Virus record (IMG/VR): IMGVR_UViG_3300045988_048969
Coordinates: 1-36,937 of that record
DNA from: a virus
DNA length: 36,937 nt
Strand: one strand, 5' to 3'
Shown here: one piece after another, positions 4,086-36,937 of the stretch
How positions within the stretch are numbered: the first letter of the stretch is position 1
Layout: each line of letters opens with the position of its first letter
The notes under the pieces: model-generated
Seen by the model: only the letters and a program-made list of their open reading frames with translations
Told to the model about the DNA's origin: nothing
Database searches by the model: none
Program-made: the position numbers and the translations under genes

Positions 4086-4214
4086 ATACTAGACAAGAGA
4101 ATTTTTGAAGCCTTAAGCGAATTGCAAAAGAAAGGCTATGAGATTTCGGAATTTTATCAAGGATATATCGCTTGTATCTTAGATGAATCGAAAAGAGGTG
4201 AGAAACGTGACTAG
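4086..4214 (+). CDS. Candidate 42-aa ORF with ATA start
   Basis: Frame opens after TGA 4044-4046 with no ATG/GTG/TTG before ATA 4086. GGAGG 4074-4078 lies 7 nt upstream; stop TAG 4212-4214 overlaps the next GTG start. Confidence 0.35.
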   Translation: MLDKRIFEALSELQKKGYEISEFYQGYIACILDESKRGEKRD

Positions 4215-4386
4215 AACGTATCATGTAACCTTCGATGTGACTGCAAATGTCACATTCGAAGTTGAAGCACATGACAGTGAAGAAGCAAAAGAAATTGCTA
4301 ATAAGCTGAATGTGAGAGATTTACAAGAGGTAAACGAAATCAATACTTGTGAATCTAGAATGGAGGTGTACGAAAGTGATTATTGA
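4207..4386 (+). CDS. Early hypothetical protein
   Basis: GTG 4207 behind GAGGTG is preferred to track ATG 4183, which lacks an SD. Confidence 0.55.
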   Translation: MTRTYHVTFDVTANVTFEVEAHDSEEAKEIANKLNVRDLQEVNEINTCESRMEVYESDY

Positions 4387-4627
4387 GTATAAAGCATTGC
4401 TTAATAAAGATGATTTAGTGAAATTGTTTGAAATGGATGAAATGTCAGAAGGAGGACAAAGAAACAAGGCAAGTAAAATCATGAGGTCTGTTAAAGAGCA
4501 GTACAAAAAAGATAATGGGATTGATTGGAAAGATACATTTATTTATAAGAATGTTTCACAAAATGTAATTCCTACAGAAACATTTTTGAAGTGTTGTCCG
4601 GAGTTTAGAAAGTCATTTAGGAGATAA
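4376..4627 (+). CDS. Early hypothetical protein
   Basis: GTG 4376 behind GGAGGTG; overlaps the upstream stop. Confidence 0.55.
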   Translation: MIIEYKALLNKDDLVKLFEMDEMSEGGQRNKASKIMRSVKEQYKKDNGIDWKDTFIYKNVSQNVIPTETFLKCCPEFRKSFRR

Positions 4628-4631
4628 GAAA

Positions 4632-4862
4632 ATGCAAGATATAAGAATGAACAGTATTCAAGATGAAGAAATGGAATTGAGCATTTATCCATTCAATCCA
4701 AAAAGAAAATATCTATCGAAAGAAGAAAAAGAGATACGCAGAGAAAAAAGGTATCAAAAAAGAATCACAAATTGCGTAAATGTAATTCTAATTACAACAA
4801 TCGTGATTCTACTTATTTCAATAGCTTGTTTAGGTAAGTCGTATGCAATGTTATTTCAATAA
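4632..4862 (+). CDS. Tail-anchored small membrane protein
   Basis: ATG behind AGGAG; C-terminal helix VNVILITTIVILLISIACLG. Confidence 0.6.
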   Translation: MQDIRMNSIQDEEMELSIYPFNPKRKYLSKEEKEIRREKRYQKRITNCVNVILITTIVILLISIACLGKSYAMLFQ

Positions 4863-4960
4863 AAAAGAGGTGCGCACTCGACAAAGCACGCACACACAAG
4901 AAATGACGTTCTTAAAATAAGAACACATACATTATAGCAGATTAAAAGGAGAAACGGAAG

Positions 4961-5623
4961 ATGGAAGAAAAGAAAAGCATTTATGAGAAACTTTCATTAA
5001 TTCAGAATGAAATGAAAGTCGGAAAAAACAATTACAACAAATTTGGGAAATATAACTATCGTTCTGCCGAAGATATTCTTGCAGAAGCTAAAAAGATTTG
5101 TTGCAAGTATAGAACAACATTAATTCTTACAGATGATATTAAAGTTGCAGAAACTAGATATTACGTTGTAGCAAATGCAATATTAATGGATTGGGATTCT
5201 CATATAACTGTAGAGGTTACCGCAATGGCTAGAGAAGAAGAAAATAAAAAAGGTATGGACGCTTCACAAGTTACAGGTTCATGCAGTTCATATGCTAGGA
5301 AATATGCGTTAAACGGTTTATTCAACTTAGATGATACAAAAGACGCAGATACAGATGAACAACATGAAGTAATTCAAAATGCACAAACAAAACAACAGAA
5401 AGCCGAAAAAAATGACAAGTTAGATGAAATTCGTATGCGTTGTTTTAAAGCACAAAATGAATTGCAGAAGCTAGGAATTGATACGCATTCAGAAGCGTTT
5501 TGTGAGCATTTAAAAGCCGAATATAAAATCAGTTCACAAGATATTCCTAATCTAAATGGAAACGGTCTAGTGGCATTAATTAAAGCATACGGAGCTATTT
5601 ACAAAGAAAATGCGAAAGCATAA
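4961..5623 (+). CDS. erf: ERF-family single-strand annealing protein
   Basis: Motifs YNYRSAEDIL and GSCSSYARKYALNGLFNLDD are typical of the ERF superfamily. Confidence 0.8.
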   Translation: MEEKKSIYEKLSLIQNEMKVGKNNYNKFGKYNYRSAEDILAEAKKICCKYRTTLILTDDIKVAETRYYVVANAILMDWDSHITVEVTAMAREEENKKGMDASQVTGSCSSYARKYALNGLFNLDDTKDADTDEQHEVIQNAQTKQQKAEKNDKLDEIRMRCFKAQNELQKLGIDTHSEAFCEHLKAEYKISSQDIPNLNGNGLVALIKAYGAIYKENAKA

Positions 5624-5636
5624 GGAGGAAAGAAAA

Positions 5637-5942
5637 ATGGAATTAGTAAACGTAACAAATGGACAAATTGAAATTCAAAAGGAAGCACTGAACAAATTGA
5701 AATCATTTCAAGAATACAAAAAGGAAATGGACAAATTAGAAAAAGATATTAAGAAAAATATCTTAGAAGCAATGGAAAATAACGGTATCAAATCATTTGA
5801 AAATGATGTTGTGAAAATTGCATATGTAGAACCATATACAAGAACAACTATTGATACAAAGTTAGTGAATGAATTAGGTCTTATGCACCAATTAGCAAAG
5901 GAAACACAAGTTAAATCTAGTGTTAAGGTGACTTGGAAATAA
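5637..5942 (+). CDS. Hypothetical protein of the recombination module
   Basis: ATG 5637 behind AAGGAGG (track start 5610 lies upstream of the SD). Confidence 0.6.
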   Translation: MELVNVTNGQIEIQKEALNKLKSFQEYKKEMDKLEKDIKKNILEAMENNGIKSFENDVVKIAYVEPYTRTTIDTKLVNELGLMHQLAKETQVKSSVKVTWK

Positions 5943-6229
5943 AACGAGATAAATCAATCTTACAAAAAGATATGTCTAAATGTTATGTATGTGGTTCAAC
6001 TTTAGATTTGCACACGCACGAAATTTATTTCGGCACTGCAAATAGAAAAAAATCAATCAAACATGGGTGTTATGTAAGATTGTGTGCAAAGCACCATAAT
6101 ATGAGCAGTGAAGGAGTTCACTTCAATCACATATTAGACATGAAACTTAAAAAGGAATGCCAACAGGCATTTGAAGAAGTACGAACAAGAAAGGAGTTTA
6201 TGGATATATTCCATAAGAACTACTTATAA
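5939..6229 (+). CDS. Zn-finger / HNH-like phage protein (CxxC...HH...CxxHH)
   Basis: CYVCGS...HTHEIYFGTANRKKS...LCAKHHN...IFHKNYL. Likely ATA 5939 start (AAGGTG 5925-5930, ATAA overlap with upstream stop); alternatives are TTG 5933 and ATG 5972. Confidence 0.6.
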   Translation: MKRDKSILQKDMSKCYVCGSTLDLHTHEIYFGTANRKKSIKHGCYVRLCAKHHNMSSEGVHFNHILDMKLKKECQQAFEEVRTRKEFMDIFHKNYL

Positions 6230-6239
6230 GGAGGTAAAT

Positions 6240-6470: not shown

Positions 6471-7006
6471 AAACAAAGTTGATAGGTAATTTCATTCGTA
6501 AATCAAGAAATGAAGATGGAAACCTAGAAATAACATTTGAATTAACTGAGCCAATATACGAATCATACGCTCAGACACTCGAAAAAGGGGCATACAGCGT
6601 GATTATAGATTCGGTTAAACATTTACGTACAAACAATCAGAATCGGCTTATGTGGGCATTAATCAAGGAAATAAGTGAAAACGAAAACGCTAGCTACAAC
6701 GATACATGGGATATGTATTGCGAGTTTTTGAGAATGGCAAAAGCTTTATATACATATGTTTCAGTGTTGAAAGATGGTGTTGATTCGTTGGCTCAAGCAC
6801 ATGGAGTTAGGGCAGTTCAAATATTGGGTACTGAGGTTAGAGACAATGGAAATGAATTTGTAAATTGTAGATTGTTTTTAGGCTCATCACAAATGGACAC
6901 AAAACAAATGGGAGTGTTAATTGATTGCATACTAGATTATGCAGAACAATTAGGAATCAGTACTCAATATTATTTAGATAAAGGAATCAAGGAGGTACAA
7001 GAATAA
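6467..7006 (+). CDS. ninB: NinB/Orf-like recombination mediator
   Basis: RTNNQNRLMWALIKEIS resembles lambda NinB RSLDQNRKLWACLGDVS (from memory). TTGA overlap with the upstream stop. Confidence 0.55.
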   Translation: MKTKLIGNFIRKSRNEDGNLEITFELTEPIYESYAQTLEKGAYSVIIDSVKHLRTNNQNRLMWALIKEISENENASYNDTWDMYCEFLRMAKALYTYVSVLKDGVDSLAQAHGVRAVQILGTEVRDNGNEFVNCRLFLGSSQMDTKQMGVLIDCILDYAEQLGISTQYYLDKGIKEVQE

Positions 7007-7371
7007 AGTTTGTAATAAAAGGAAAGCTTGATGGGTTGAATGAATATATTAATGCTTGCAGAACGAATCGTTACAAAGGAGCAGAAATGAAGAAAAAGAA
7101 TGAGCGATTAGTTATGGCGTACATTCTTAGAGCAGTAAACTTTGGCGAAATTTACGAGGTTAAGAACTACCCAATTAGATTAAATATCAATTGGTATGAG
7201 CCAAATAACAAAAGAGATATAGACAATATCACATTCGCTACTAAATTCATTCAAGATTCATTAGTTAGAACAGGGATATTAGAAGATGATTCAAGGAAAT
7301 ACATTAATCAAGTGAATCATTCAGTATTTACAGATAAGGAGAATCCAAGGATAGAGGTAGAAATTATATGA
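7003..7371 (+). CDS. rusA: RusA-like Holliday junction resolvase, ATA start
   Basis: Frame opens after TAA 6979-6981 with no canonical start before TTG 7036. ATA 7003 lies 7 nt after GGAGG 6991-6995. N-terminus KFVIKGKLDGLNEYINACRTNRY is typical of Gram-positive phage RusA. Confidence 0.75.
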   Translation: MKFVIKGKLDGLNEYINACRTNRYKGAEMKKKNERLVMAYILRAVNFGEIYEVKNYPIRLNINWYEPNNKRDIDNITFATKFIQDSLVRTGILEDDSRKYINQVNHSVFTDKENPRIEVEII

Positions 7372-7712
7372 GAGAACAAGAAATGGCAGTAAATGTAGCA
7401 AAGCAAATTTATTTTGATGAATTTAATACGTTTTATAAAATTGCAGAAACTAAAAAGGATGCAAAATTAGATGATGTATTTAATGAAATGTGCACGTGTC
7501 ATGATATTACAGATGAATTAATCTACAGATTAGAGAGATGTAATAGCTTTACGGAAGAAGGATTAAACGAACAAAGAATTATTGCAATATATATTGCGTT
7601 GCATAAAGATGAGTGTTTTAGTCCTAAACAAATAAAATGCTATATCGAATACACCGACAAGATTATTGATGAAATCCTAAAGCAAGTCGCAGTGCTTGGC
7701 GGAGGTGATTAG
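7368..7712 (+). CDS. Hypothetical protein
   Basis: ATG overlapping the rusA stop (ATATGA). Confidence 0.6.
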   Translation: MREQEMAVNVAKQIYFDEFNTFYKIAETKKDAKLDDVFNEMCTCHDITDELIYRLERCNSFTEEGLNEQRIIAIYIALHKDECFSPKQIKCYIEYTDKIIDEILKQVAVLGGGD

Positions 7713-7713
7713 A

Positions 7714-8502
7714 ATAGCAGTAATTAGAGTTATCAAGAACAGAAACTATACAGTGATGAGCAATACACATTTAAAAGATAAGCGCTTATCACTAAAAGCA
7801 ATAGGCTTGTTAAGTGTTGTTCTTAGCTTACCGGATGATTGGCATTATACAGTAAATGGGTTAGTTGGAATTGTAAAAGACGGTGAAAGAGCAGTAAATG
7901 GAGCATTATCTGAATTAAAGGAAAATGGATATTTAAGAATAGAAAAACTTTATCCAAATAAAGATGGAAGAAGTAAAATTGAATATCAATATATTTTCAG
8001 TGAAACGCCTCAAGACCTACAAAACGTACCTCTTGAGCAAGACATACAAAATGTAGGTCTACATAATGTAGGACTACAAGATGTAGGTTTACATAATGTA
8101 GGACTACAAGATGTAGGTTTACAAAATGTAGGTACTTATAAATATACTAATAAACCAAATACTAATAACAAAAATACTAATAACAAAGTAAGTAAACACA
8201 AATACGGTGAATATTCACACGTATTACTTACAGATAAAGAACACACACACCTATTAGATTTATATGGAGATTCATTAGATGAGCATATAAAGATATTAGA
8301 TGAGTACATTGAAACATCCGGAAAGAAATACAAAAACCATTCACTAGTGATTCAGAAGTGGGTTCATGATGAATGGTTGAAAAGAAATAAAGATAAGCCT
8401 ATCACACTTGATTCAAAGTTTTATGCAGAGCAAAACACAAAAACAGATAAAGAAGTACAAGATGAATTTAACAGGCTTAGAGCACAACTATTTGGAGCAT
8501 AG
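7714..8502 (+). CDS. Replication initiator / replisome organizer (winged-helix N-domain, DnaD-like C-domain)
   Basis: RNYTVMSNTHLKDKRLSLKAIGLLSVVLSLPDDW...LSELKENGYL. Probable ATA 7714 start 6 nt after GGAGGTG 7701-7707; alternatives TTG 7696 and GTG 7705 lack an SD. Confidence 0.7.
   Translation: MAVIRVIKNRNYTVMSNTHLKDKRLSLKAIGLLSVVLSLPDDWHYTVNGLVGIVKDGERAVNGALSELKENGYLRIEKLYPNKDGRSKIEYQYIFSETPQDLQNVPLEQDIQNVGLHNVGLQDVGLHNVGLQDVGLQNVGTYKYTNKPNTNNKNTNNKVSKHKYGEYSHVLLTDKEHTHLLDLYGDSLDEHIKILDEYIETSGKKYKNHSLVIQKWVHDEWLKRNKDKPITLDSKFYAEQNTKTDKEVQDEFNRLRAQLFGA
8019..8188. repeat. Putative origin: 15-bp iterons (core ATGTAGG) plus AT-rich 15-bp repeats inside the organizer gene
   Basis: Units at 8046, 8061, 8076, 8091, 8106 and 8121, plus a degenerate copy at 8019. 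8061-8090 is perfectly duplicated at 8091-8120. TACTAATAACA recurs with 15-bp period at 8160 and 8175. Confidence 0.6.
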
Positions 8503-8514
8503 AAAGGGAATTAA

Positions 8515-8772
8515 ATGATTAATTGGATTTGTGGAGCTATATGTGGAAGTGGTGCAACACTTCTTCTATATAGCCTAATGGTAGGAAAAAGGATTCAAGA
8601 AGAACAAGACAAAGCTTGTAAATGTATTTTTAAATACGAAGAATACAGAAGAAGAATCAGAACACTTGAATATCAAAACAAAGAGCTAGAAAAAAGAATC
8701 GTAGAATTACAAACGAAGCACGGTGAAGTCGTAAGCGTTGAATATTATTCGGATTTTGATGAGGTGAAATAA
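8515..8772 (+). CDS. Small membrane-anchored coiled-coil protein
   Basis: N-terminal helix ICGAICGSGATLLLYSLMV. Confidence 0.55.
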   Translation: MINWICGAICGSGATLLLYSLMVGKRIQEEQDKACKCIFKYEEYRRRIRTLEYQNKELEKRIVELQTKHGEVVSVEYYSDFDEVK

Positions 8773-9273
8773 ATGGATTACTTAAAGCCAAAAAAAGAAG
8801 AAAAATGTAATAAATGCAAATATGAATATTTATCAGAATGTGAACATCCTTGTATCGTGTGCAGATGGAAAGTTAAAGAGAGAGGTTTAGCTTTTTTTGG
8901 AAAGTTGAGTTATTTCGAACCTAAAGAAGAAAAAAATGATGATGAAATCGACATGGTCAATCATCCTAAACATTACAACAGAGATGGAGCAATGGAGTGT
9001 ATTGATGAAATGATAGCAGTATTTGGAAAAGATATTGTCGCTTGTTTCTGCTTGTGCAATGTATGGAAATATAGATACAGAGCTTCAGATAATGGACATG
9101 AAGAGGACTTATATAAATCTGACTATTATATGGCTAAGTATAAGGAATTAATTACGGGACGCAGTGTATTAGGCTTTGAAAGTGTTATGGAACTTGAAGA
9201 ATTAGAAGATATTGTAAAAGAAAAATTAGATAAATTGTATTTAGAAAGAGAGATTAAAAGACATGACAAGTAA
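8773..9273 (+). CDS. DUF3310-like protein
   Basis: NHPKHYN...ECID...NVWKYRYRA...EDLYKSDYY pattern. Confidence 0.55.
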   Translation: MDYLKPKKEEKCNKCKYEYLSECEHPCIVCRWKVKERGLAFFGKLSYFEPKEEKNDDEIDMVNHPKHYNRDGAMECIDEMIAVFGKDIVACFCLCNVWKYRYRASDNGHEEDLYKSDYYMAKYKELITGRSVLGFESVMELEELEDIVKEKLDKLYLEREIKRHDK

Positions 9274-9844
9274 AGATTACAAAGAAAGATTAAAAGAAAT
9301 GAGTATTAAAGAGCGAAAAGAAATGTACCGCATAAATAAGCATGATGTTGAATTGATAAAAATAATGCTACAAATGCAAGAAAAGTTAGATGAGCAAATT
9401 TTAAAAGAACATAACATCTCAGAAATTAATGAAGATTTCTTGAATATAGCAATACTCGATGAAATTGGTGAATTAACACATGAATTAAAAGGTGAGTGGT
9501 GTTGGTGGAAGAATACACAAGCACCGGTTGATAAAGAAAAAGTTCTAGAAGAATTAGTTGATATTTGGCATTTTGTATTAAGCCATAGCAACCATTTTGT
9601 GAAAAAAGACTACATTTATGAAAAACAAATGTCTAGAATTAACGACCAAATAAAAGTTTGTTGTAGTGAAGTAATGCGAACAGGATTTGCCGATAAATTA
9701 GTTAGCTTGATAAAGTGCAAAAATTTTAGAATTATAAAACTTATCTTCATTAGTTTATTTTTAGGATTCAGTATTGAAGATGTATATAAAGCATATTGCG
9801 ATAAAAACAAAGTGAATTATCAAAGACTAGAAAGTGGGTATTAA
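9263..9844 (+). CDS. Dimeric (all-alpha) dUTPase-like NTP pyrophosphohydrolase
   Basis: ILDEIGELTHELKGEWCWWK...EELVDIWHFVLSHSN resembles the dimeric dUTPase family. Confidence 0.5.
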   Translation: MTSKDYKERLKEMSIKERKEMYRINKHDVELIKIMLQMQEKLDEQILKEHNISEINEDFLNIAILDEIGELTHELKGEWCWWKNTQAPVDKEKVLEELVDIWHFVLSHSNHFVKKDYIYEKQMSRINDQIKVCCSEVMRTGFADKLVSLIKCKNFRIIKLIFISLFLGFSIEDVYKAYCDKNKVNYQRLESGY

Positions 9845-9845
9845 T

Positions 9846-10085
9846 ATGTGGATTAGAAGCCAAGATGGAAAAATTTTAATGGATTGCGACTTTTTCGCAG
9901 TTGAAGAACACGGCGTTAAATATGGAGTGATTACATTAAGCGGTAAAAGCGGTATAAGCGTTAGTCTAGGTACATATACTACTAAAGGTAAAGCTTTAAA
10001 AGTTTTAAACGATATTCAAGAATGGTACGAATGTTCATACAGTGAAACATTCCAAATGCCACAAGATGAGGATGTTAAAATCTAG
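9846..10085 (+). CDS. Hypothetical protein
   Basis: ATG 9846 is preferred to GTG 9834. Confidence 0.5.
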   Translation: MWIRSQDGKILMDCDFFAVEEHGVKYGVITLSGKSGISVSLGTYTTKGKALKVLNDIQEWYECSYSETFQMPQDEDVKI

Positions 10086-10102
10086 AAAGGAGCTAACTAT
10101 AT

Positions 10103-10558
10103 ATGCCTAATTGGTGTGTAGGAACTTTAAGAGTAAGAGGTACAAAAGAGAATTTAACAAAATTTGTTTTAGAAGGATTACAACCGGTTACTTATATCGG
10201 CGAAGATTTAGAAGCGTTGAAGATGGATGATGATAATGGTCGTGTTAAATGTAGCAGATGCTGGATTAAAGGAACTCGCAGAGGATTTATTCTTGACTTA
10301 GATGAATTTATTTATGATTGGAACGATGAAGGAAAAATTGCAATTGGACTTGAAGCAGAATTCGCATGGGGTATTAGTTCGGAAGAACTATTAAATTCTT
10401 GTAAGCAATATGGAGTTGATATGAGAATTCATGCATTTGAATGTGGAATGTGCTTTAACCAAATTATTGAAATTATTGATGGAGAAATCACCAAGGATGA
10501 AGAAGTTAAATTCGATGATTATAACTGGGATTGTATTTGTCCGAATATAGGAGGATGA
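10103..10558 (+). CDS. Hypothetical protein (MPNWC N-terminus, DUF1281-like)
   Basis: ATG behind AAAGGAG; the family call rests on weak motif memory only. Confidence 0.5.
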   Translation: MPNWCVGTLRVRGTKENLTKFVLEGLQPVTYIGEDLEALKMDDDNGRVKCSRCWIKGTRRGFILDLDEFIYDWNDEGKIAIGLEAEFAWGISSEELLNSCKQYGVDMRIHAFECGMCFNQIIEIIDGEITKDEEVKFDDYNWDCICPNIGG

Positions 10559-10560
10559 AA

Positions 10561-10791
10561 ATGATTGAAGAAAGAATTGATGCATTAATTAAAGTGTATG
10601 AAGGATACATTGATGAGAACAACCAAAGTATCAAAAAACGCAAAAATCTTTTAATCGAGAAATTGGACGATGTACGTTATGAATATCTTAAATTATATGT
10701 CGAAACGATTGAAATATATATGAGAGAAAATGAATTGTTTGAAATGTTTATTGAATCGTTAAAATATGCAAAGACAGGAGAAAGAAAATGA
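10561..10791 (+). CDS. Hypothetical protein
   Basis: ATG 10561 behind AGGAGG. Confidence 0.55.
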   Translation: MIEERIDALIKVYEGYIDENNQSIKKRKNLLIEKLDDVRYEYLKLYVETIEIYMRENELFEMFIESLKYAKTGERK

Positions 10792-11087
10792 ATAATAAAG
10801 AATTGGAAAAAAACTTAGAAAAGGAAAGAAAAAAGCAAAGAGAAGATGCGATAAAAATAAATGGTTTTATCAGATTAGATAAAAGCAGTGCTTCTGAAAT
10901 CGATAAACAAATTGAGCAAACTTATTTATCTTTGCAAAAGAATATTAAATTTGTCTGTACAAATAAAGACTTGATGAACAGTATGCTAGATGAATTAGAC
11001 TACATTGTTTACGCATCGAAACTATATGGTGGAAAGCATGTTATGGAAGAATTGGATAATCGTTACAAAAATAAATTAATGAGTTAA
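10788..11087 (+). CDS. Hypothetical protein
   Basis: ATGA overlap with the upstream gene. Confidence 0.55.
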   Translation: MNNKELEKNLEKERKKQREDAIKINGFIRLDKSSASEIDKQIEQTYLSLQKNIKFVCTNKDLMNSMLDELDYIVYASKLYGGKHVMEELDNRYKNKLMS

Positions 11088-11100
11088 AAGGAGAATGAAA

Positions 11101-11361
11101 ATGATTAGATTACAAAATAACTATGCAATCACTTCTAGCAGTGGTTCATTCGCCCTTGTAATGTTTGGAAAGGGTAAGGATAAAGAAGGGAATGAGATAG
11201 ACGTACAAAAGCCTATCTCATACCATGCAACGCTAGAATCGGCTTTACAAAGATATTCTAATTGTGTGATAGCAGATTTAGTTAGCAACTTTGATTTAGG
11301 CTTGAAAGATGTTGAACAAGTTATAAACGAGCTTAAAGAGGAGATAAAGGCATATGAATAG
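11101..11361 (+). CDS. Hypothetical protein
   Basis: ATG 11101 lies 7 nt after AAGGAG; ATG 11095 is an alternative. Confidence 0.55.
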   Translation: MIRLQNNYAITSSSGSFALVMFGKGKDKEGNEIDVQKPISYHATLESALQRYSNCVIADLVSNFDLGLKDVEQVINELKEEIKAYE

Positions 11362-11536
11362 CAAGCACGCAGATAGATATGAAGAATTACGTAAGGTAAA
11401 CCCAAATTTAGCAATGGAGTATTTAAGAATTTACACAACTATGGATAAAGCTCAAAAACATTTTAATAATTTTAAAAAAGAATGTAACGATTGGCTAGAT
11501 AACATTTATAAGTTAGGAGTGAAAGAAAATGAATAA
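11354..11536 (+). CDS. Hypothetical protein
   Basis: ATG behind GAGGAG. Confidence 0.5.
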   Translation: MNSKHADRYEELRKVNPNLAMEYLRIYTTMDKAQKHFNNFKKECNDWLDNIYKLGVKENE

Positions 11537-12167
11537 ATATCAAAAAGCTATTGAAGTAATAGATACATTGCTTCACTTGATGTGTGGAGAAGAAAGAGAA
11601 GATGGATATAAGCCAACTATGGAAGAAATGTCTAATTCTATGGAGTTGCTAAAAGATTTAGTTAATAAAGAAGATTCATTTGAATGGATTCCTGTTTCTG
11701 AAAGACTTCCGGATGAGCATGATAGTATCTTTGCTAAATTGTATGGAACAGATAAATGGGGCAATATGCTTTGGAGAACAACATCAAATAGAGTGATTGC
11801 AACAATTAAATATAATGACGGTACGGTAATTGTTAAAGAGGCATTTACTCATGATGGGGAATGGACTGTCGAGAAGAGAAACACAAACTGTAAAGTTATA
11901 GCTTGGATGCCTTTTCCAAAACCATATAATAAGGAGCAAGAAAATGACGCTAGAGAAATGTTTGAAAAACTTGGATGGCTAGAAGAAGAAACTTGTACCA
12001 ACGAATCAGAATATAATTTAGTAGATGGATTTGAATGTTCAAATTGTGGAATTATTATCGAAAATTATAACGAAATCGAAATTGATGAAGATTATCCAGA
12101 AGATAGATGTATGAAAGAATACGCACCGAGATATTGTCCAAATTGTGGTCGAAAGATTGTAGATTGA
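11529..12167 (+). CDS. DUF551-like protein with C-terminal zinc ribbon
   Basis: WIPVSERLPDE ... AWMPFPKPY, then CSNCG...CPNCG. Confidence 0.5.
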   Translation: MNKYQKAIEVIDTLLHLMCGEEREDGYKPTMEEMSNSMELLKDLVNKEDSFEWIPVSERLPDEHDSIFAKLYGTDKWGNMLWRTTSNRVIATIKYNDGTVIVKEAFTHDGEWTVEKRNTNCKVIAWMPFPKPYNKEQENDAREMFEKLGWLEEETCTNESEYNLVDGFECSNCGIIIENYNEIEIDEDYPEDRCMKEYAPRYCPNCGRKIVD

Positions 12168-12178
12168 GGAGGATTTAA

Positions 12179-12712
12179 ATGAAAACAAAGGAAGAATATG
12201 AAAAAGCATTAAAAGAAATGAATGACGCTTTTTACGGTATTACTTTTTTAAACAGTCAAACGAGAAGATTTGACGACAACTTAAATCTTTTACGTGAATT
12301 AGTAAATGAGCATTTTGAAGAAAAAGATAAACATTTTGAAGAAAAATCAAAAACAAATCTAGAATTTTATTACGATGATTTGTTAGAAGAAGGATTCAGT
12401 GATTTTGCCGTTGTTAACGGAAAAATTAAGTCGTGTTTATATGTACCATGCGATAAATGTGAATTTAAAAAGAAAGATTGTAGTAAAGATAGGATTACGT
12501 GGTTGTTAAGTCAACGAAAAAATCCGAAATATAAATTTACACAATTTGAATACGACTTAATAAATACATACAGGCATGTCGATGATAGATGTAAATTTAA
12601 TGGTTGTTATCAATTAAAAAGTTTGAAAGAAAAAGGATATTTCAAAAATGTGGATAAAAATGAATTAATTAAAGATATTCTAGAGAATTGTGAGGTAATA
12701 AAAAATGATTAA
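12179..12712 (+). CDS. Hypothetical Cys-rich protein
   Basis: ATG behind GAGGAGG; internal duplication HFEEKDKHFEEKSK. Confidence 0.55.
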   Translation: MKTKEEYEKALKEMNDAFYGITFLNSQTRRFDDNLNLLRELVNEHFEEKDKHFEEKSKTNLEFYYDDLLEEGFSDFAVVNGKIKSCLYVPCDKCEFKKKDCSKDRITWLLSQRKNPKYKFTQFEYDLINTYRHVDDRCKFNGCYQLKSLKEKGYFKNVDKNELIKDILENCEVIKND

Positions 12713-13187: not shown

Positions 13188-13199
13188 GAGGTGGCACTA

Positions 13200-13717: not shown

Positions 13718-13726
13718 GCATTTTTT
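13704..13726 (+). terminator. Rho-independent terminator (palindrome TGCTCACAaTGTGAGCA plus T6)
   Basis: Arms 13704-13711 and 13713-13720, then TTTTTT 13721-13726. Confidence 0.6.
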
Positions 13727-13743
13727 CATGTAATAATTGTTTT

Positions 13744-13819: not shown

Positions 13820-13901
13820 TGTTTACAAAGCCTATCAGTAAGTCCTTCCCAAATTAGATGTTAAATACCAACAATGGCATACAATTAGGCTTTGATATAT
13901 T

Positions 13902-13926: not shown

Positions 13927-13944
13927 AATAATAAGGAGGAGAAT

Positions 13945-28593: not shown

Positions 28594-31173
28594 ATATCAG
28601 ACGGAACATTAAAGTTTGATACAAAGATTGATACAAGTGGTCTAGAGAATGGAATGAAATCCGTTCATGAAGTCACAAGTGGAGCTACAAATGCAATTAA
28701 GGAAACTTCAAAAGCAATCGACAAGTTAGGTTCTGATGGTTCAAAAGCACCACCAAAGATTAGAGATAAACTTAAAGATTTAAATGATGAGCAAAAGAAT
28801 ACACAAACAGAAACACAAGAAACAGGTTCTAAATTTGATGTATTTAAACAAGTAGGAAACAGTGCCTTAGAGTCAATTCAAGGTGGATTTGATGGATTGC
28901 TAGAGAAGATTCAGAATATTAGTCCGGAAGCTACTGCAATCACTGAAACCTTAACAGGATTAGGCGTAGGAGGTGTTGTAGGCGTTACTGCCGTAGCAGG
29001 AGCTATTGGTGGTATGGCATTAGCAATTAAGACAGGTGTCAATCAAGCTACAGAACTAGATGACGCTATGGCTAAATTCCAAGCTCAGACAGGTGCTTCA
29101 AGTAATGAAATGAGCAAATTTAAAAACATTGCTCGTGATGTTTGGTCAAACAATTTCGGTGAAGATGTTTCAGATGTTGCCGATATGATGGGCAGAGTCA
29201 AGCAACAAATGCAAGGCATAAGTGATGTTGACCTAAAGAACGTGACAGAGGATTTATTAACTTTAAGAGATACATTCGATATGGATGAGAATGAAACTCT
29301 TAGAGGTGCTCAACAATTAATGAAGCAGTTCGGAATCACTTCTCAAGAAGCTTTCGACCTTATGGCTACAGGTGCTCAGAATGGTTTAAACAAATCAGAT
29401 GAGCTAGGCGACAACATTTCAGAATACTCCGGTAAATTCGCACAAGCAGGATATTCGGCAGATGAATATTTCCAATTAATGCAGAATGGATTAGATGGTG
29501 GAGCTTATAACCTTGATAAAGTAAATGACGCAATCAACGAAGTTACCACAAGGTTAGTTGATGGAACTATTGAAGGAGCTTTAGATAGTTTTGATACCAA
29601 GACGCAAGATGTCTTTAAAGCTTGGCAAGAAGGAAGAGCAACTCAGAAAGATGTTGTAAATGCGATTGTAGAAGATATTTCAAAGACTACAAATGAACAA
29701 GAAAAGTTGAATAAATCTGCAACGGCTTTCGGCACAATGGGAGAAGATTTCAACGCCGGATTCATTCAGTCCTTAACGACAGTAGGGAATAAATATAAAG
29801 ATGTAGAAGGGGCAATGGATAAAGTCAAAGAAATTGCAAATGGTGGCTTAAAGAACGCTTTAAGTGGCTTAGGGCGTGCATTTCTTGATTCATTTACTCC
29901 AATAGGCGAACTTATTACCCCTATTCTTGCAGGTATCATCGGATTAATTACAGTAGCTATACAAGGTATTCAACAAGGATTTGCTAAAGTTGGTGATGTA
30001 ATTTCAAATGTATTAAGCAAGATTGATACAAGTGGAATTACAGAATTGACAAGTCAAGTTTCAGAGGTGTTAGCTCCTGCTTTTGATGAGGTCAGAAAAG
30101 CGATTGACGAAATGAAAGTTGCACTTGAACCTATTGCAAAAGAAATTTTAAGCAAGATAGGCAGTGCAATTCAAAATGTAGTAAACCAAGCTCAAAAGAT
30201 TCTTAGCGTTGTAGGACCACCGATTCTAGCAATCATTAAGAAGATTATTCAAACAGTTATCGGTATGACTCCTGTAATAACATCTATTCTTCAAGTAGTT
30301 GGAAGTGTGGTAAGTGGAATCATTTCATTTATAACTATGGTTGTGACGTATGTAGGAACTGCAATTGCAACAATACTAGGATTTATCATGCCTATTGTTC
30401 AAATTGTAGCTACAATTGTAGCGAATATTTGGTCTGTAATATTAACGGTTGCTCAGAATATTTGGAGCAAAGTTAGCGAAGTAGTTACTGCTATTATTGG
30501 ATTCGTAAGCAATTTATTTAAGACGGTTTCGGACATCATAAACAAAATTTGGAGTAAGATTCAAGATTCCATGAACAAGGTAAGAGACAAGGTTCAAGGT
30601 GTTATTGATAATATTAATAAATATTTCAATAATGTTAAGAGTACTGTTTCTGATGTATTTAATGGCATTTGGTCTAAAGTTCAAGGTGTAATGGATAATG
30701 TAGGAAATAAAATTTCAAATGTTTTACAAGGAATACAGAATGCATGGAGCGGTTTAAAAGGGTTTGTAGGTGGTGTATTCGGTGGAATTGAAGGAGCAGT
30801 AGGTTCATTAGTCTCTAGTGTAAAAGGAATGGTAAATGGTGTTATCGGTGGCATTAACGGTGCAATCGGTATCATCAATAAGATTCCCGGAGTGCACATT
30901 GGAAGGATTCCTAGACTAGAGCGTGGTGGTGTATTAAAACGTGGTCAAATCGGTTTATTAGAAGGTAATGGAGCAGAAGCAGTCGTACCTTTAGAAAAAA
31001 ATAAAGCGTGGATTCGTGCCGTAGCTAAAGATATGGCTCAAATCATGCCTAGCGTTACGACAAATAACAATGGACAGACTATCAACTTCTACAATAAAGC
31101 TCAAAGTCCGGATGAAATCGCTAGAATGTTGCGAATGCAAGCAAGATATGGATATGGAGGTGTTGTTCAATAG
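28594..31173 (+). CDS. Tape measure protein, ATA start
   Basis: Frame opens after TGA 28591-28593. ATA 28594 follows AAGGAGGTGG 28576-28585. N-terminus SDGTLKFDTKIDTSGLENG is typical of TMPs; long Gly/hydrophobic and IWSK repeat region. Confidence 0.8.
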   Translation: MSDGTLKFDTKIDTSGLENGMKSVHEVTSGATNAIKETSKAIDKLGSDGSKAPPKIRDKLKDLNDEQKNTQTETQETGSKFDVFKQVGNSALESIQGGFDGLLEKIQNISPEATAITETLTGLGVGGVVGVTAVAGAIGGMALAIKTGVNQATELDDAMAKFQAQTGASSNEMSKFKNIARDVWSNNFGEDVSDVADMMGRVKQQMQGISDVDLKNVTEDLLTLRDTFDMDENETLRGAQQLMKQFGITSQEAFDLMATGAQNGLNKSDELGDNISEYSGKFAQAGYSADEYFQLMQNGLDGGAYNLDKVNDAINEVTTRLVDGTIEGALDSFDTKTQDVFKAWQEGRATQKDVVNAIVEDISKTTNEQEKLNKSATAFGTMGEDFNAGFIQSLTTVGNKYKDVEGAMDKVKEIANGGLKNALSGLGRAFLDSFTPIGELITPILAGIIGLITVAIQGIQQGFAKVGDVISNVLSKIDTSGITELTSQVSEVLAPAFDEVRKAIDEMKVALEPIAKEILSKIGSAIQNVVNQAQKILSVVGPPILAIIKKIIQTVIGMTPVITSILQVVGSVVSGIISFITMVVTYVGTAIATILGFIMPIVQIVATIVANIWSVILTVAQNIWSKVSEVVTAIIGFVSNLFKTVSDIINKIWSKIQDSMNKVRDKVQGVIDNINKYFNNVKSTVSDVFNGIWSKVQGVMDNVGNKISNVLQGIQNAWSGLKGFVGGVFGGIEGAVGSLVSSVKGMVNGVIGGINGAIGIINKIPGVHIGRIPRLERGGVLKRGQIGLLEGNGAEAVVPLEKNKAWIRAVAKDMAQIMPSVTTNNNGQTINFYNKAQSPDEIARMLRMQARYGYGGVVQ

Positions 31174-32039
31174 ATATCAATAAAGTAAGAGTTATTGTCC
31201 GTAGGGATGATGGCAAACAATTTGAAATTGATAACAAAAGATGGAGAATACCATCTAGTGATGGCTTAGATGGATTTGATTATGTAGCACCTTCATACAC
31301 GACTCAAGACAATGCATTCGGAAATGGTGCTAGATTAATCGGTTCACGTATTCCAACGAAAGAAAGAAGCGTGAAAGCTACCTTCAAAGGTTCGCTAGAA
31401 GAAAAAAGAGAAGAAAGGGAGAAGCTACGGCGCTTCTTCCAATATTCTCATGTATTTGATGTGATAGTTGAGTACATGGGAGAAAAGAAATATTGTAGAG
31501 GTCGTTTATATGCGTATAGCTTGCCTACAGTTAACATCTACAAAGATTTGGAGCTTAACTTTACAATTCTATGCACACAACCTTTATTGCTTTCATTTGA
31601 TGATTTCGCAAGGAATATAGCAGAAATTGGAGAAGGTTTAGCGTTCAATTTCGAAATACCGGAAACAGGCGTGAACTTTGGAACATTTACATTCGCTAGA
31701 GAAATCTATATTGATAATCAAGGAGATACAGAAACATACTGTAGAGCCGTTATTGAAGCATTTGGAGAGGTAACAAATCCGAAACTATTCAATAAAGATA
31801 AATATATTCGTGTATTAGATACACTACACAATGGTGATGTGTTAGAAATTGATTTAGTTTCAGAACCTATTTCGATTAAAAAGAATGGTGTGAATTGTAT
31901 CGGCAAAGTTGATAGAACCTCATCATTCAATGATATGACGATTCAGTTAGGTGAGAATATCATAGGATATACGGCAGACAATGGAGATACGAATCTAGCT
32001 TGCACGGTTTATTACAATGAAAGGTATTTAGGTTTATAG
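31170..32039 (+). CDS. Distal tail protein (Dit), ATA start
   Basis: Frame opens after TAG 31122-31124 with no canonical start until GTG 31371. ATA 31170 lies 9 nt after GGAGG 31156-31160 and overlaps the TMP stop (ATAG). Confidence 0.7.
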   Translation: MDINKVRVIVRRDDGKQFEIDNKRWRIPSSDGLDGFDYVAPSYTTQDNAFGNGARLIGSRIPTKERSVKATFKGSLEEKREEREKLRRFFQYSHVFDVIVEYMGEKKYCRGRLYAYSLPTVNIYKDLELNFTILCTQPLLLSFDDFARNIAEIGEGLAFNFEIPETGVNFGTFTFAREIYIDNQGDTETYCRAVIEAFGEVTNPKLFNKDKYIRVLDTLHNGDVLEIDLVSEPISIKKNGVNCIGKVDRTSSFNDMTIQLGENIIGYTADNGDTNLACTVYYNERYLGL

Positions 32040-33066: not shown

Positions 33067-33567
33067 ATAGAAAAGAAAAATGGAGGATTTAAACAAATAA
33101 CAAGAAGTATGTATTTTCTAGACAAGATGAATGCAATTGGTGGTGTAGCCGTTGCCGTATTAACATACGTATTAGGTGAGCATTGGTATTTATTTGCGTT
33201 CTTCTTATTTATGAACGTCGTGGATTATATTACAGGGTGCATGAAGTCGGCGATTAATCACAAAATCAATAGCAATAAAGGATGGATTGGAGTCCTTAAA
33301 AAGCTAGGCTATTGGATTATGATTGTAGTTGCGTTCACGTTCAGTGCATTCTTGGTAGAGATTGGAAAAATGCTAGGAATTGATTTCCATGTAACTACAT
33401 TATTAGGTTGGTTTGTATTGGCTTCTTTATGTATTAATGAAGTGCGTAGCATTATTGAGAACCTTGTACAATGTGGATATAGCGTGCCTAGTGTATTAAC
33501 TAAAGGTTTGGAAGTAGCGGATAAAATCGTTAACGAAGACAATGACGAATCAAGTACCTTGGAATAA
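33067..33567 (+). CDS. Holin (Phage_holin_4_1 / toxin-secretion holin type)
   Basis: MNVVDYITGCMKSA...SNKGWIGVLKK...NEVRSIIENL. The start is uncertain: ATA 33067 (8 nt after AAGGAG), ATA 33097, ATG 33109 and ATG 33127 are all in frame. Confidence 0.8.
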   Translation: MEKKNGGFKQITRSMYFLDKMNAIGGVAVAVLTYVLGEHWYLFAFFLFMNVVDYITGCMKSAINHKINSNKGWIGVLKKLGYWIMIVVAFTFSAFLVEIGKMLGIDFHVTTLLGWFVLASLCINEVRSIIENLVQCGYSVPSVLTKGLEVADKIVNEDNDESSTLE

Positions 33568-35213: not shown

Positions 35214-35242
35214 GGGTAGTCGAAAGGCTACCCATTTATTTT
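35214..35242 (+). terminator. Hairpin with GAAA tetraloop and T-rich tail
   Basis: GGGTAGTC(35214-35221) GAAA GGCTACCC(35226-35233), then ATTTATTTT. Confidence 0.5.
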
Positions 35243-35259
35243 ATAGGAGGAAAAGAAAA

Positions 35260-35679
35260 ATGATTAATAGTATAGCAACGGCAGTACAAACAGTAGCGAA
35301 TGGACAAAATGTATTATTTCCAACGGACAGAGTAAGAACGAAATCTTGTCAATGTGCATGTAAAGGTTGGCTTGCTCATGATGTAGGAAGTGGATTGTTT
35401 ACATTGACAAAACAAGGAATTTATGAAGTAGAATATACGGCAGATATTACAAGCACAACGGTAGGAGTAGCTTCTTTAGAATTAGAACAGAATGGAGAAG
35501 CAGTAGGAGGAACAGAATCTTTATATAATGTAGCTACTGCAAGCGCATATGGAAATGTAAGTGGAGCTACATTGATTCAAGTACCTTGTGGAGCTTCTTA
35601 CACGATTACACTAGGAAATAACAGTGGCTTAGATTTATCTGTTCAAAATGCAAATATCATCATTAAGAAATTAGCGTAG
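35260..35679 (+). CDS. BclA-C-terminal-domain-like (C1q/TNF-like jelly-roll) protein without collagen repeats
   Basis: FTLTKQGIYEVEYTADI...LELEQNGEAVGGTES...NANIIIKKLA resembles, from memory, the Bacillus exosporium BclA / ExsFA C-terminal domain. Confidence 0.45.
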   Translation: MINSIATAVQTVANGQNVLFPTDRVRTKSCQCACKGWLAHDVGSGLFTLTKQGIYEVEYTADITSTTVGVASLELEQNGEAVGGTESLYNVATASAYGNVSGATLIQVPCGASYTITLGNNSGLDLSVQNANIIIKKLA

Positions 35680-35686
35680 GTGTATC

Positions 35687-36124
35687 ATGCAAGAGGTTAG
35701 AAAAAGGAATCTAGACCTCTTAACCGAAGCAATGAGAGGACTAGAAAAAGGATACAATGATTTAGATTTTAAAGTCATGAGCCAAGCCTTAGACAACATC
35801 AAAGACATTGATACAATATTGGCTATGAGTGATGGAAGAACGGCTATAAATGCATTAAGAACAAATGACACAGATATTGAAGGAACAGAAATTGATGACA
35901 ATATTGCATTGATGAATAGCCATTTTAGAAAATACATAGAAGCAAAAAAAGAATATCGAAAAGATAACAATGAAATTGATAAACGAACATCTATTCGTGA
36001 GTTAGAAGCTTTTTTGAGCGCTATGTATGGAATCTTAGAAGAAATGAAAACGTCTAGCGACTTTCAAGAAGAAAGAGAAATGGTCAGAGATAAATTAAGA
36101 GAAATGTTCTCTGTATATCAGTAA
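35687..36124 (+). CDS. Acidic helical hypothetical protein (accessory cluster gene 5)
   Basis: ATG behind TAGGTG. Confidence 0.55.
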   Translation: MQEVRKRNLDLLTEAMRGLEKGYNDLDFKVMSQALDNIKDIDTILAMSDGRTAINALRTNDTDIEGTEIDDNIALMNSHFRKYIEAKKEYRKDNNEIDKRTSIRELEAFLSAMYGILEEMKTSSDFQEEREMVRDKLREMFSVYQ

Positions 36125-36130
36125 TAAAAA

Positions 36131-36174
36131 CCTCTTTTATGTGCTATAATTGGTACATAAAGGAGGATTTTTTT
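36131..36174 (+). terminator. Long hairpin plus T-run whose 3' arm contains the endolysin SD
   Basis: CCTCTTTTATGT(36131-36142) pairs with ACATAAAGGAGG(36155-36166), with one G-U pair; followed by ATTTTTTT. Confidence 0.6.
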
Positions 36175-36175
36175 A

Positions 36176-36937
36176 ATAAATTATCAAAGTTTTAAAAAAG
36201 CCGTATTAGGCAAAGCATTCGACATTGACGGATATTATGGTGCGCAGTGTTGGGACGGATTCGCAAAGTACATGATTGATTTAGGCTATCAAGCTATCCA
36301 TTGCACAACAAGTAGCTTTGTTAAGGACATTTGGAACAATCGAAAAACAAATGGTATCTTGAACTATTGTAATGAGGTCTCAATTATGCAACCGGGAGAC
36401 ATTGCGGTATTTAAAGAAGTAGCAGGATGGACTCCATACTCACATATCGCAATCTTTGATTCTGATATTGACGGAAAGCAAGGATGGTTCTTGGGTCAAA
36501 ATCAAGGTGGAAAAGGCGGAGCATTCAATTTAATTAAATTACCTTATTTTGCAACCTTTGATACTGCGTTTAGACCTAAATGTTTCGCAAATACAGGAGC
36601 AGTTAAACCAAGCATTCCACAACCTGTAGAAGCAATTGACCAAATCTTGCACGCAGGAAGCTACGTAACATCCGTACAAATGAAGATTGGCAATCAAGGA
36701 TTGAAACAAATCAATGGCGATTTATGCGCATACCTTGCACAATTAGGTGGTTGGTTTCCAATTCGTATGGTTGACAAAGTTCGCTATTCTGATGGATATA
36801 ATGATAACGTATTGCATACAACAAATGCCGTTGTCTACGTTACAAGAATCCGTGTTGATGAAGTCAACGTGCAAAAGAATCTTGCGAAAATCGGTGGAAT
36901 TTGGGTAAATTGTGGTCCATTAATTGAAGTAGCATAA
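36176..36937 (+). CDS. CHAP-domain endolysin with C-terminal SH3b-like cell-wall-binding domain, ATA start
   Basis: Frame opens after TAA 36158-36160. ATA 36176 lies 9 nt after AGGAGG 36161-36166. The catalytic-Cys motif YYGAQCWDG (TGT 36248-36250) lies upstream of the first ATG (36272); His motif YSHIAIF; ends TAA 36935-36937. Confidence 0.85.
   Translation: MNYQSFKKAVLGKAFDIDGYYGAQCWDGFAKYMIDLGYQAIHCTTSSFVKDIWNNRKTNGILNYCNEVSIMQPGDIAVFKEVAGWTPYSHIAIFDSDIDGKQGWFLGQNQGGKGGAFNLIKLPYFATFDTAFRPKCFANTGAVKPSIPQPVEAIDQILHAGSYVTSVQMKIGNQGLKQINGDLCAYLAQLGGWFPIRMVDKVRYSDGYNDNVLHTTNAVVYVTRIRVDEVNVQKNLAKIGGIWVNCGPLIEVA

Follow-up and report, generated by a model that had tools for sequence, protein, structure and literature searches.

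ATA start codons and an initiator-type tRNA(UAU) in a temperate siphophage of gut bacteria: a candidate phage-owned start-codon system

The window analysed here comprises positions 1 to 36,937 of the IMG/VR virus record IMGVR_UViG_3300045988_048969, a stretch of 36,937 nucleotides with a G+C content of 33%. It encodes, nearly all on the plus strand, an integrase, a repressor, replication and recombination functions, terminase, portal, head, tail and lysis proteins, and belongs to a temperate siphophage of ~38 kb integrated in an uncultured gut bacterium of the Erysipelotrichaceae. A first-pass annotation had proposed that at least ten genes of this phage can only initiate at ATA codons placed behind Shine-Dalgarno (SD) sites. 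Our analysis shows that about a quarter of the phage genes begin with ATA, the main virion and lysis genes included, and that the phage carries a tRNA of the initiator type with the anticodon UAU. Probably, this tRNA serves as a phage-encoded initiator that decodes AUA as a private start codon.

The ten main ATA sites are located at positions 7003, 15474, 17633, 19033, 20476, 24594, 27126, 28594, 31170 and 36176. In each of these ten genes the codon is ATA and, as had been claimed, represents the first plausible initiator: an in-frame stop precedes it by 0-15 codons, no ATG, GTG or TTG lies in between and no canonical alternative occurs before conserved sequence is reached. The first canonical codon follows 9-66 codons past the ATA and is not preceded by an SD. 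Six additional candidates with competing canonical codons fared differently. Three of them (7714, 26348 and 33067) are well supported, the ATA being kept while the adjacent canonical codon is unconserved or toggling; 13200 is probable, and 4086 and 5939 are plausible but weaker. A GGAG-containing SD (AGGAGG, GGAGG or AGGAG) was found 6-11 nt upstream of the ATA at 14 of the 16 sites, with the type and spacing seen in the SD+ATG genes of the window. The two remaining sites are 19033, which has only GGAGAGGGGGA 10-16 nt upstream and whose start overlaps the portal stop codon (ATAG), and 5939, which is preceded by GGTG only. The coordinates of five ATAA or ATAG overlaps with the preceding gene (7003, 5939, 19033, 26348 and 31170), interpreted in the first-pass annotation as replacing the usual ATGA coupling overlap, agree with our own. 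Products of the genes at 19033 and 20476 had been called fibres; the families matched are head or virion structural proteins, not clear tail fibres.

Altogether, ~66 genes begin with ATA (16), ATG (43), GTG (4) or TTG (3). When long frames on the plus strand were scanned for the first SD-linked start candidate, ATA was recovered 13 times, ATT twice and ATC never. Among internal isoleucine codons, ATT (498) is 3.4 times commoner than ATA (148), and ATC occurs 180 times. Gene callers restricted to ATG, GTG and TTG do truncate the genes concerned, as had been predicted, with a public portal call of 436 aa and a public Dit (distal tail protein) call of 187 aa. In two public contigs (L225 3468 and L226 1938), the lysin was called from a TTG located upstream of the SD, so that the frame runs across it; the resulting 261-aa product with its spurious N-terminus is another annotation symptom of the ATA start.

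Comparisons with relatives and protein families indicate that the stretches following the ATA codons are translated. When the ten segments that run from an ATA to the first canonical codon were compared among relatives, variable sites fell on codon positions 1, 2 and 3 in the proportion 48/28/129, and in the 66-codon extension of Dit, whose first canonical codon lies 67 codons downstream of the ATA, in the proportion 17/9/51. For the major capsid protein (24594), profile positions 3-294 of phrog_422 aligned to residues 3-288, and for the protein encoded at 20476, positions 4-195 of phrog_24103 aligned to residues 4-200. Several head-protein family profiles aligned from their positions 5-8 to the product of 19033 from residues 2-7, several PHROG profiles aligned from positions 2-7 to the replication initiator (7714) from residues 2-5, and positions 1-140 of the Pfam QueT profile matched residues 7-145 of QueT (15474). 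Portal homologues with genuine methionine starts reach the N-terminus set by the ATA. The public portal call P0001 (436 aa, 1406 member sequences) is left without a conserved N-terminal block. The lysin can be aligned with the lysin of Streptococcus phage B30 from residue 3, the B30 methionine being placed one residue ahead of the ATA. Its catalytic cysteine is residue 25 (TGT, 36248-36250), and the first ATG (36272) lies downstream, just as the first-pass annotation had noted for the CHAP domain. Homologues lacking the N-terminal extensions had been named there as evidence that would speak against ATA initiation; instead, profiles and homologues align from the ATA. The ATA is the functional and conserved start position of these genes.

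Related contigs of IMG/VR, ENA and Logan assemblies, more than 60 in number and one isolate genome included, carry matching ATA codons. Alignment of 11 start ATAs gave 263 observations, in which genuine variation was confined to ATG (5) and GTG (3), and neither ATT nor ATC occurred; of 53 internal ATA codons used for comparison, 31 were variable, mainly towards ATT or ATC. Single relatives carry ATG in an unchanged context at 20476, 27126 and 33067, and the holin start (33067) toggles between ATA (L110) and ATG (L116, L126) in identical context. Conversely, the gene at 21335 begins with ATG in the window and with ATA in two or three relatives. The spacer between SD and ATA may vary in length with the ATA itself fixed, e.g. 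at 13200. Start codons recorded in relatives are listed gene by gene in Table 1.

The tRNA gene at 13744, to which the first-pass annotation had drawn attention, is real. It is matched by the Rfam tRNA family with 48.8 bits, and its cloverleaf is kept in relatives; ARAGORN did not call it in the window. The tRNA occurs in every related contig that spans the region, in two anticodon-stem haplotypes that are three compensatory pairs apart, and in an alignment with diverged copies 99% of the cells were paired and double changes were observed at 10 pairs. According to the Rfam alignment, the anticodon loop is CTTATTA (13774-13780) with the anticodon TAT at 13776-13778. Positions 1 and 72 form an A1xA72 mismatch, which is flagged as non-standard by Rfam and is a feature of initiators; diverged copies have A1xA72, C1xA72 or G1xA72, and all retain the loop CUUAUUA. 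Within 11 aligned sequences, the D-stem pair A11:U24 (alignment columns 11/25) and the formylase determinants G2:C71 and C3:G70 are invariant and A73 is found in all, again in agreement with an initiator, as is the variable region AGGUC. Elongator tRNAs carry Y11:R24 in the D stem. Among the properties of an elongator tRNA-Ile(UAU), the phage tRNA thus has the anticodon, and it lacks the paired 1:72, the purine (t6A) at position 37 and Y11:R24. The best matches in 5426 E. coli genomes were tRNA-Met genes, at a median of four places per genome; one match that was examined (78% identity over 75 nt) lies in the metZWV cluster of initiator genes between mltA and amiC. Since ATA is the least used isoleucine codon within the genes of the phage, a role in elongator supply is unlikely. 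The tRNA is conserved, structurally sound and initiator-derived.

The anticodon CAU of tRNAfMet is replaced by UAU, which is invariant in all copies. Instead of the three G:C pairs of the initiator anticodon stem, the window tRNA has A29:U41, G30:C40 and U31-G39, and the sister haplotype G29:C41, G30:C40 and U31-G39. A one-base bulge in the T stem shifts its position between the haplotypes, the T loop is TGCAAAT (UGCAAAU) with G55 replacing U55, and the D loop of 7 nt (AGUAGUA) has GU in place of the usual GG. The T arm is normal in the diverged copies of L135, L136, L174 and L179. The gene is situated between two hairpins (Table 1) at the junction of the early and late modules, and the tRNAs of relatives are likewise flanked by hairpins. 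An extended -10-like element, TGTAATAAT (13729-13744 region), ends 6 nt before the +1 of the tRNA. This element is the predicted promoter of the tRNA, and transcription may start at or beside the mature 5' end; it is not conserved in other lineages.

For an analysis of covariation, we compared 45 portal-family loci, 10 with and 35 without tRNA(UAU). The share of ATA among first SD-linked starts was 22-50% in loci with the tRNA and at most 7% (median 0) in loci without it, which corresponds to an odds ratio of 28.5 (Fisher p 2e-28) for loci that are related and not independent. A cloverleaf search that detected all of the positives revealed no UAU tRNA in the negatives. L135, a prophage in the sequenced isolate assembly of Amedibacillus sp. 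YH-ame6 with a portal identity of 55%, has a tRNA(UAU) with a 1:72 mismatch and SD-linked ATA codons at portal, capsid, major tail and tape measure. The metagenome contig L136 (portal identity 62%) also has a tRNA(UAU) with a 1:72 mismatch and SD-linked ATA codons at portal, capsid and major tail; its tape measure and Dit probably start with ATA, the SD being absent or scored weak only. L137 (portal identity 53%) has no such tRNA, uses SD+ATG at portal, capsid, major tail, tape measure and Dit, and none of its 25 genes shows an orphan ATA.

Gene by gene, the portal starts with ATA in 37/37 close relatives and in L135, L136, L174 and L175, and with ATG in L137, L184, L199 and L210, all of which lack tRNA(UAU). 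The major capsid gene begins with ATA in all close relatives as well as in L135, L136, L174 and L175, and with ATG in L199 and L210, while the major tail gene has ATA in L135, L136, L174, L175 and L179, and ATG in L137 and one close relative. Across lineages, ATA is retained at portal, capsid, major tail, tape measure and Dit, and ATG at the scaffold and chaperone genes. Thus, among portal-family relatives, ATA starts occur only where tRNA(UAU) is present, and the comparison of ATA and ATG at orthologous starts with the presence of the tRNA, suggested beforehand as a check, gave a cleanly positive result. The proposed count in host core genes was made as well: 11 core genes by the integration site of a related strain, among them rpoA, rplQ, rplM and rpsI with AGGAGG or AGGAG upstream, start with ATG (10) or TTG (1), without any orphan SD-linked ATA.

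A second case was encountered in relatives that carry an initiator-like tRNA(CCU) (L211, L213, L215 and L217-L222). In four of these contigs, an SD-linked AGG opens the tape measure precisely at the orthologous position (Table 1); the gene begins with ATA in six tRNA(UAU) lineages and with ATG in L137. In three states, the start codon of the tape measure thus goes along with the anticodon of the initiator-like tRNA that is resident. More distant relatives have an initiator-like tRNA(CAU) and a few have CCU, with a C1xU72 or G1xA72 mismatch. In L182-L210 (e.g. L184 13700), with 47-49% portal identity, the initiator-like tRNA(CAU) genes are found inside the structural module. Codon and tRNA with the matching anticodon (ATA/UAU, AGG/CCU) co-occur as in phage codon reassignment, the genes are open in the standard code without the in-frame stops of stop recoding, and an SD at 6-11 nt together with coding conservation beginning at the ATA is what is found at SD-dependent initiation sites.

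Tables of matches to the initiator scaffold in viral contigs contained, among the matches listed, at least 112 tRNAs with CAU, at least three with GAC and at least two with CCU. The tRNA(CCU) of L365 has an acceptor stem in common with the window tRNA. No clear GTC or AGG starts were seen beside tRNA(GAC) and further tRNA(CCU) genes (L346, L400, L428, L365 and L379). A tRNA-pattern scan of species-representative genomes yielded mostly chance matches and did not find the prophage of the window. Initiator-like tRNA(UAU) genes do occur in unrelated bacteria (L084, a Gemmatimonadales metagenome-assembled genome; L085, Terracidiphilus; L100, Roseobacter insulae), and positions 1:72 of the unrelated copies, bacterial and viral, are U:A, CxA, UxU or AxC. 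The 8 kb flanks of the genes in L084, L085 and L100 contained no clear ATA starts; beside the viral tRNA(UAU) genes, none were clear in L040, L057 and L061, and L059, whose tRNA is identical to that of L136, had one ambiguous candidate.

Table 1. Coordinates of the features and start codons in relatives; positions refer to the window unless a contig is named
Feature	Position	Strand	Start codon and context, or other detail	Start codon in relatives
attL core TATGGTATAATA	484-495	n/a	12 bp, left prophage boundary	
Integrase gene	619-1716			
Small open reading frame (ORF), 42 aa	4086-4214	+	possible ATA start, GGAGG 7 nt upstream, weak candidate	ATA in 3 relatives
96-aa ORF	5939-6229	+	possible ATA start, ATAA overlap, weak SD, weak candidate; TTG two codons upstream	ATA in 11 relatives
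rusA-like resolvase	7003-7371	+	ATA 7003-7005, AGGAGG 7 nt upstream, ATAA overlap with preceding gene	ATA in 19/19
Replication initiator / DnaD-like	7714-8502	+	ATA 7714-7716, GGAGG 8 nt upstream	ATA 16, GTG 3
Small coiled-coil protein	13200-13394	+	probable ATA 13200-13202, AGGAGG 8 nt upstream; competing ATG two codons downstream	ATA invariant in 29 relatives
Terminator, hairpin + T-run	13700-13737	+	ends early/replication module (sequence + terminator scan)	
Initiator-type tRNA, anticodon UAU	13744-13819	+	Rfam tRNA match 13744-13816; encoded CCA 13817-13819	
Second terminator-like hairpin	13902-13920		downstream of tRNA	
queT transporter	15474-15929	+	ATA 15474-15476 directly after in-frame stop, GGAGG 7 nt upstream	
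Portal	17633-19036	+	ATA 17633-17635, AGGAGG 6 nt upstream, first canonical codon 31 codons downstream	see text
Head/virion structural protein	19033-19842	+	ATA 19033-19035, ATAG overlap with portal stop	ATA in 37/37
Virion-associated protein	20476-21084	+	ATA 20476-20478, AGGAGG 7 nt upstream	ATA 15-16, ATG 4
Major capsid protein	24594-25463	+	ATA 24594-24596, AGGAGG 9 nt upstream	see text
Head-tail connector/minor head protein	26348-26710	+	ATA 26348-26350, ATAG overlap, GGAGG 10 nt upstream	ATA invariant, 58 observations; ATG two codons later is ATA or ATC in some
Major tail protein	27126-27632	+	ATA 27126-27128, AGGAG 8 nt upstream	see text
Tape measure	28594-31173	+	ATA 28594-28596 directly after in-frame stop (TGAATA); ATA-SDGTLKFDTK; tRNA UAU	see text
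Dit (distal tail protein)	31170-32039	+	ATA 31170-31172, ATAG overlap, GGAGG 9 nt upstream	ATA in 31/31
Holin	33067-33567	+	ATA 33067-33069, AGGAG 8 nt upstream	see text
CHAP endolysin, cut by window end	36176-36937	+	ATA 36176-36178, AGGAGG 9 nt upstream	ATA in 22/22
Tape measure, L137			ATG-ADGTLIFDTK; no tRNA	
Tape measure, L211	11482		AGG-SDGSLLFDTK; tRNA CCU	
Tape measure, L217	~11155	-	AGG-ADGSLLFDTE; tRNA CCU	
Tape measure, L219	~5126		AGG-ADGSLLFDTE; tRNA CCU	
Tape measure, L222	~6032	-	AGG-ADGSLLFDTE; tRNA CCU	

The source contig of the window is k119_103830 (43 kb) of ENA assembly ERZ27261314, a name that suggests a MEGAHIT short-read assembly. The 12-mer TATGGTATAATA at the left boundary recurs at the right junction (L223 12673-12684), 1.4 kb past the right end of the window, and the unoccupied site of the related strain L227 (2460-2528), upstream of ecfA1, contains one copy. 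The phage is therefore an integrated prophage. Insertion took place in the promoter region of the host operon ecfA1-ecfA2-ecfT-truA, and TATGGTATAATA resembles the -10 region of this operon. The first ORF of the window (3-455) is a host gene with 77% identity to its counterpart in L227. The flanking genes ecfA1, ecfA2, ecfT and truA are nearest to those of Faecalicoccus, Floccifex and Holdemanella (76-79% identity for EcfA2), which assigns the host to an uncultured member of the Erysipelotrichaceae. The related host strain L227 contains, at 7654-14191, a different integrase-bearing element with Abi_2 and Abi_alpha directly after rpsI. A megablast search with a 15 kb query against GenBank phages gave no match; similarity to these phages was seen at the protein level only.

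Between the tRNA and the terminase (14726-15929), a gene for a queuine tRNA-ribosyltransferase/DpdA-like protein (phrog_887, E 5e-39) adjoins queT. The pair suggests 7-deazaguanine modification of the phage DNA, or possibly of a tRNA. The motifs GATC, GGCC and CGCG are missing from the window (229, 43 and 42 expected), and CCAG/CTGG, CAGC/GCTG and GATGC/GCATC are strongly depleted, which represents a marked avoidance of restriction sites.

How could AUA be used as a full start codon? In the mechanism that we propose, an initiator-type tRNA in the phage would have changed its anticodon from CAU to UAU, and tRNA(UAU) would pair with AUA in the P site of ribosomes positioned by the SD. AUA would then be a full start codon for ~16 of the 66 genes, comprising virion, head/connector, holin and endolysin genes and a few early ones, and the remaining phage genes as well as the host genes would stay on ATG, GTG or TTG. 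The tRNA would be charged, most likely with isoleucine by isoleucyl-tRNA synthetase (IleRS), because recognition by IleRS depends on the anticodon. Formylation of the Ile-tRNA is possible because the formylase determinants of the acceptor stem are kept, and ATA-led proteins would then begin with (f)Ile. The initiation factors IF2 and IF3 would have to accept tRNA(UAU); IF3 checks codon-anticodon pairing and not AUG as such. In work by RajBhandary and Schulman, anticodon-changed initiator tRNAs are said to start at the complementary codon, with an amino acid that follows the anticodon-dependent synthetase. One report describes an engineered initiator tRNA with a changed anticodon (AAC), from which translation starts at the corresponding codon (10.1101/2021.05.25.445580). 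In B. subtilis, a tRNA(UAU) is well charged by IleRS, and with unmodified U34 AUA was bound strongly and AUG weakly (PMC3919564). Translation of the virion and lysis genes would depend on expression of the phage's own tRNA. The first-pass annotation had left the choice between a dedicated decoding mechanism, possibly via the tRNA at 13744, and deliberate translational throttling. The UAU anticodon on an initiator scaffold, the covariation and the AGG/CCU parallel favour the former; throttling through weak host decoding may contribute but does not explain the covariation. Beyond this phage, some phages of gut Bacillota probably practise a natural form of orthogonal initiation, in which shifted initiator tRNAs (UAU, CCU, possibly GAC) are combined with matching start triplets.

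Some observations weigh against the proposed decoding of AUA by the phage tRNA. Two of the three G:C pairs of the canonical initiator anticodon stem are lost and position 37 is U, not A. The elbow of the tRNA is unusual in the lineage of the window (bulged T stem, G55, short D loop), and ARAGORN remained silent. Within the portal family, the carriers of tRNA(UAU) belong to one clade, and the covariation may go back to one or few origins. With the normal initiator, mRNAs starting at AUA and at AUG were equally active in an optimised E. coli in vitro system, although the AUA mRNA was affected more by nutrient limitation and ppGpp (PMC5499595); the need for the phage tRNA may thus be partial. Finally, some of the ATA genes are early (rusA, replication initiator), so that a pure late-gene switch is too simple. 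Only tentatively do we suggest that the arrangement serves a temperate phage as a safety or timing lock, and maybe as a barrier to use of its genes without the tRNA.

Conceivably, tRNA(UAU) initiates but carries methionine, through modification of U34 or a permissive methionyl-tRNA synthetase (MetRS), and may also serve AUG starts as a general phage initiator, e.g. for surviving nucleases that cut tRNAfMet. To own such a tRNA seems useful, as portal-family relatives have an initiator-like tRNA(CAU) of their own, and U34 can wobble with G. Moreover, initiator tRNA is a cleavage target of VapC-type toxins, and the anticodon loops of phage tRNAs often deviate from those of the host targets (PMC10264068). 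The switch of specific genes to ATA, kept across lineages, is left unexplained by a methionine-charged tRNA. MetRS is also generally known to depend strongly on C34. Together with the weak binding of AUG by unmodified U34 in B. subtilis (PMC3919564), this makes charging with methionine unlikely in our opinion.

It is also improbable that the host fMet-tRNA(CAU) reads AUA behind strong SDs, be it tolerated or as a means of throttling, and that the phage tRNA is an elongator tRNA-Ile(UAU). ARAGORN does label the copies of relatives as tRNA-Ile(tat), phage elongator tRNAs are generally common, the SDs at the ATA starts are strong and the AUA mRNA resembled the AUG mRNA in the E. coli system mentioned above (PMC5499595). 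However, the 1:72 mismatch, A11:U24 and U37 are foreign to elongators and the nearest E. coli genes are initiators; in addition, the codon that an elongator would serve is the rarest of the internal isoleucine codons. Relatives without tRNA(UAU) have ATG at the same genes, the host ribosomal protein genes do without ATA starts, and AGG beside tRNA(CCU) is beyond near-cognate reading by tRNA(CAU). Throttling is further difficult to reconcile with ATA starts in the genes of those virion proteins that are most abundant.

That the true starts are the downstream ATG, GTG or TTG codons selected by public gene callers, the stretches after the ATA being untranslated leaders, is highly improbable: these stretches show the third-position bias of 48/28/129 and align to family profiles and homologue N-termini, the downstream codons have no SD and a lysin starting there would lose its catalytic cysteine. 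A sequencing or assembly error, or miscalling of a modified G (by way of the DpdA/Tgt-like enzyme and QueT), has next to no probability, although a G-to-A error would turn ATG into ATA and, on the other strand, the anticodon CAT into TAT, and although guanine modification by the phage may be conceivable, because an isolate genome and dozens of contigs assembled in many projects (IMG, ENA, Logan) share identical ATAs, individual relatives show ATG at single sites in unchanged context, lineages at 55-62% portal identity retain ATA at the same genes and the contig name suggests short reads. Recurrence in many independent assemblies likewise excludes the raw-read error that the first-pass annotation had named as a possible refutation. 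In k-mer statistics, ATG was not depleted (1027 on the plus strand) and the ATA sites shared no motif apart from the preceding A, which ruled out a systematic G-to-A artefact or a modification motif.

Initiation at AUA by the phage tRNA(UAU), which we prefer, has its closest counterpart in laboratory mutants of the initiator anticodon (E. coli tRNAfMet with CUA, GAC, GAU or AAC; 'orthogonal initiation'). These also start at a non-AUG codon behind an SD, and the starting amino acid is set by the anticodon-dependent synthetase. They are engineered, whereas the phage tRNA is natural, conserved in its lineage and coupled to ~16 genomic start codons; its scaffold differs from theirs in lacking two of the three anticodon-stem G:C pairs and in having U37. 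With tRNAfMet itself (E. coli metZWV/metY) it shares the 1:72 mismatch, A11:U24, G2:C71, C3:G70, A73 and AGGUC, but it has UAU instead of CAU, only G30:C40 of the stem pairs, U37 and an altered T arm and D loop. The elongator tRNA-Ile(UAU) of Mycoplasma mobile and of a B. subtilis tilS-deletion suppressor likewise reads AUA with UAU and is charged by Bacillota IleRS (PMC3919564), but has a paired 1:72 and functions in elongation, while the phage tRNA is initiator-like and the phage has few internal AUA codons.

In animal mitochondria, AUA initiation is carried out by tRNAMet with f5C34, and the bacterial infC gene starts at AUU. Neither case involves a dedicated initiator: in mitochondria, one modified tRNAMet(CAU) serves AUG and AUA in both initiation and elongation, and the AUU of infC, a single start that is weak and autoregulated, is decoded by the normal initiator. 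Borges et al. in 2022 reportedly found that phage suppressor tRNAs read TAG or TGA as sense, with an enrichment among lysis and late genes. Two further articles treat the recoding of stop codons in gut phages (PMC10879173, PMC11210395). As in the present case, a phage tRNA gives a codon a reading different from that of the host, the genes affected are chiefly those for structure and lysis, and gene callers are misled; there, however, an elongator suppressor tRNA acts on stops, and here an initiator derivative would act on a start codon in genes without in-frame stops. In open-access papers and bioRxiv we found no description of a natural phage initiator tRNA with an anticodon other than CAU; what turned up were engineered systems and stop-codon recoding. 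To our knowledge, all cellular translation starts with tRNA(CAU), and anticodon-shifted initiators are known only as laboratory constructs. The phage thus looks like the carrier of a natural, virus-owned start-codon system that was previously undescribed.

For annotation, the finding means that gene callers limited to ATG, GTG and TTG truncate the genes for portal, capsid, tail, tape measure, Dit, holin and lysin across a widespread group of gut phages, a single truncated portal cluster accounting for 1406 sequences. Synthetic biology would gain ready-made orthogonal pairs of initiator tRNA and start codon. If the proposed decoding is true, the virion and lysis proteins start with a residue other than methionine and are made only when the phage tRNA is present, which would be a new candidate mechanism for gating the expression of these genes. 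It would stand beside stop-codon recoding as a second mode of code manipulation by phages, and as its start-codon counterpart would form a lock on the lytic cycle and a barrier to gene theft. The identity of the start codon would then be evolvable and could be privately owned by a virus.

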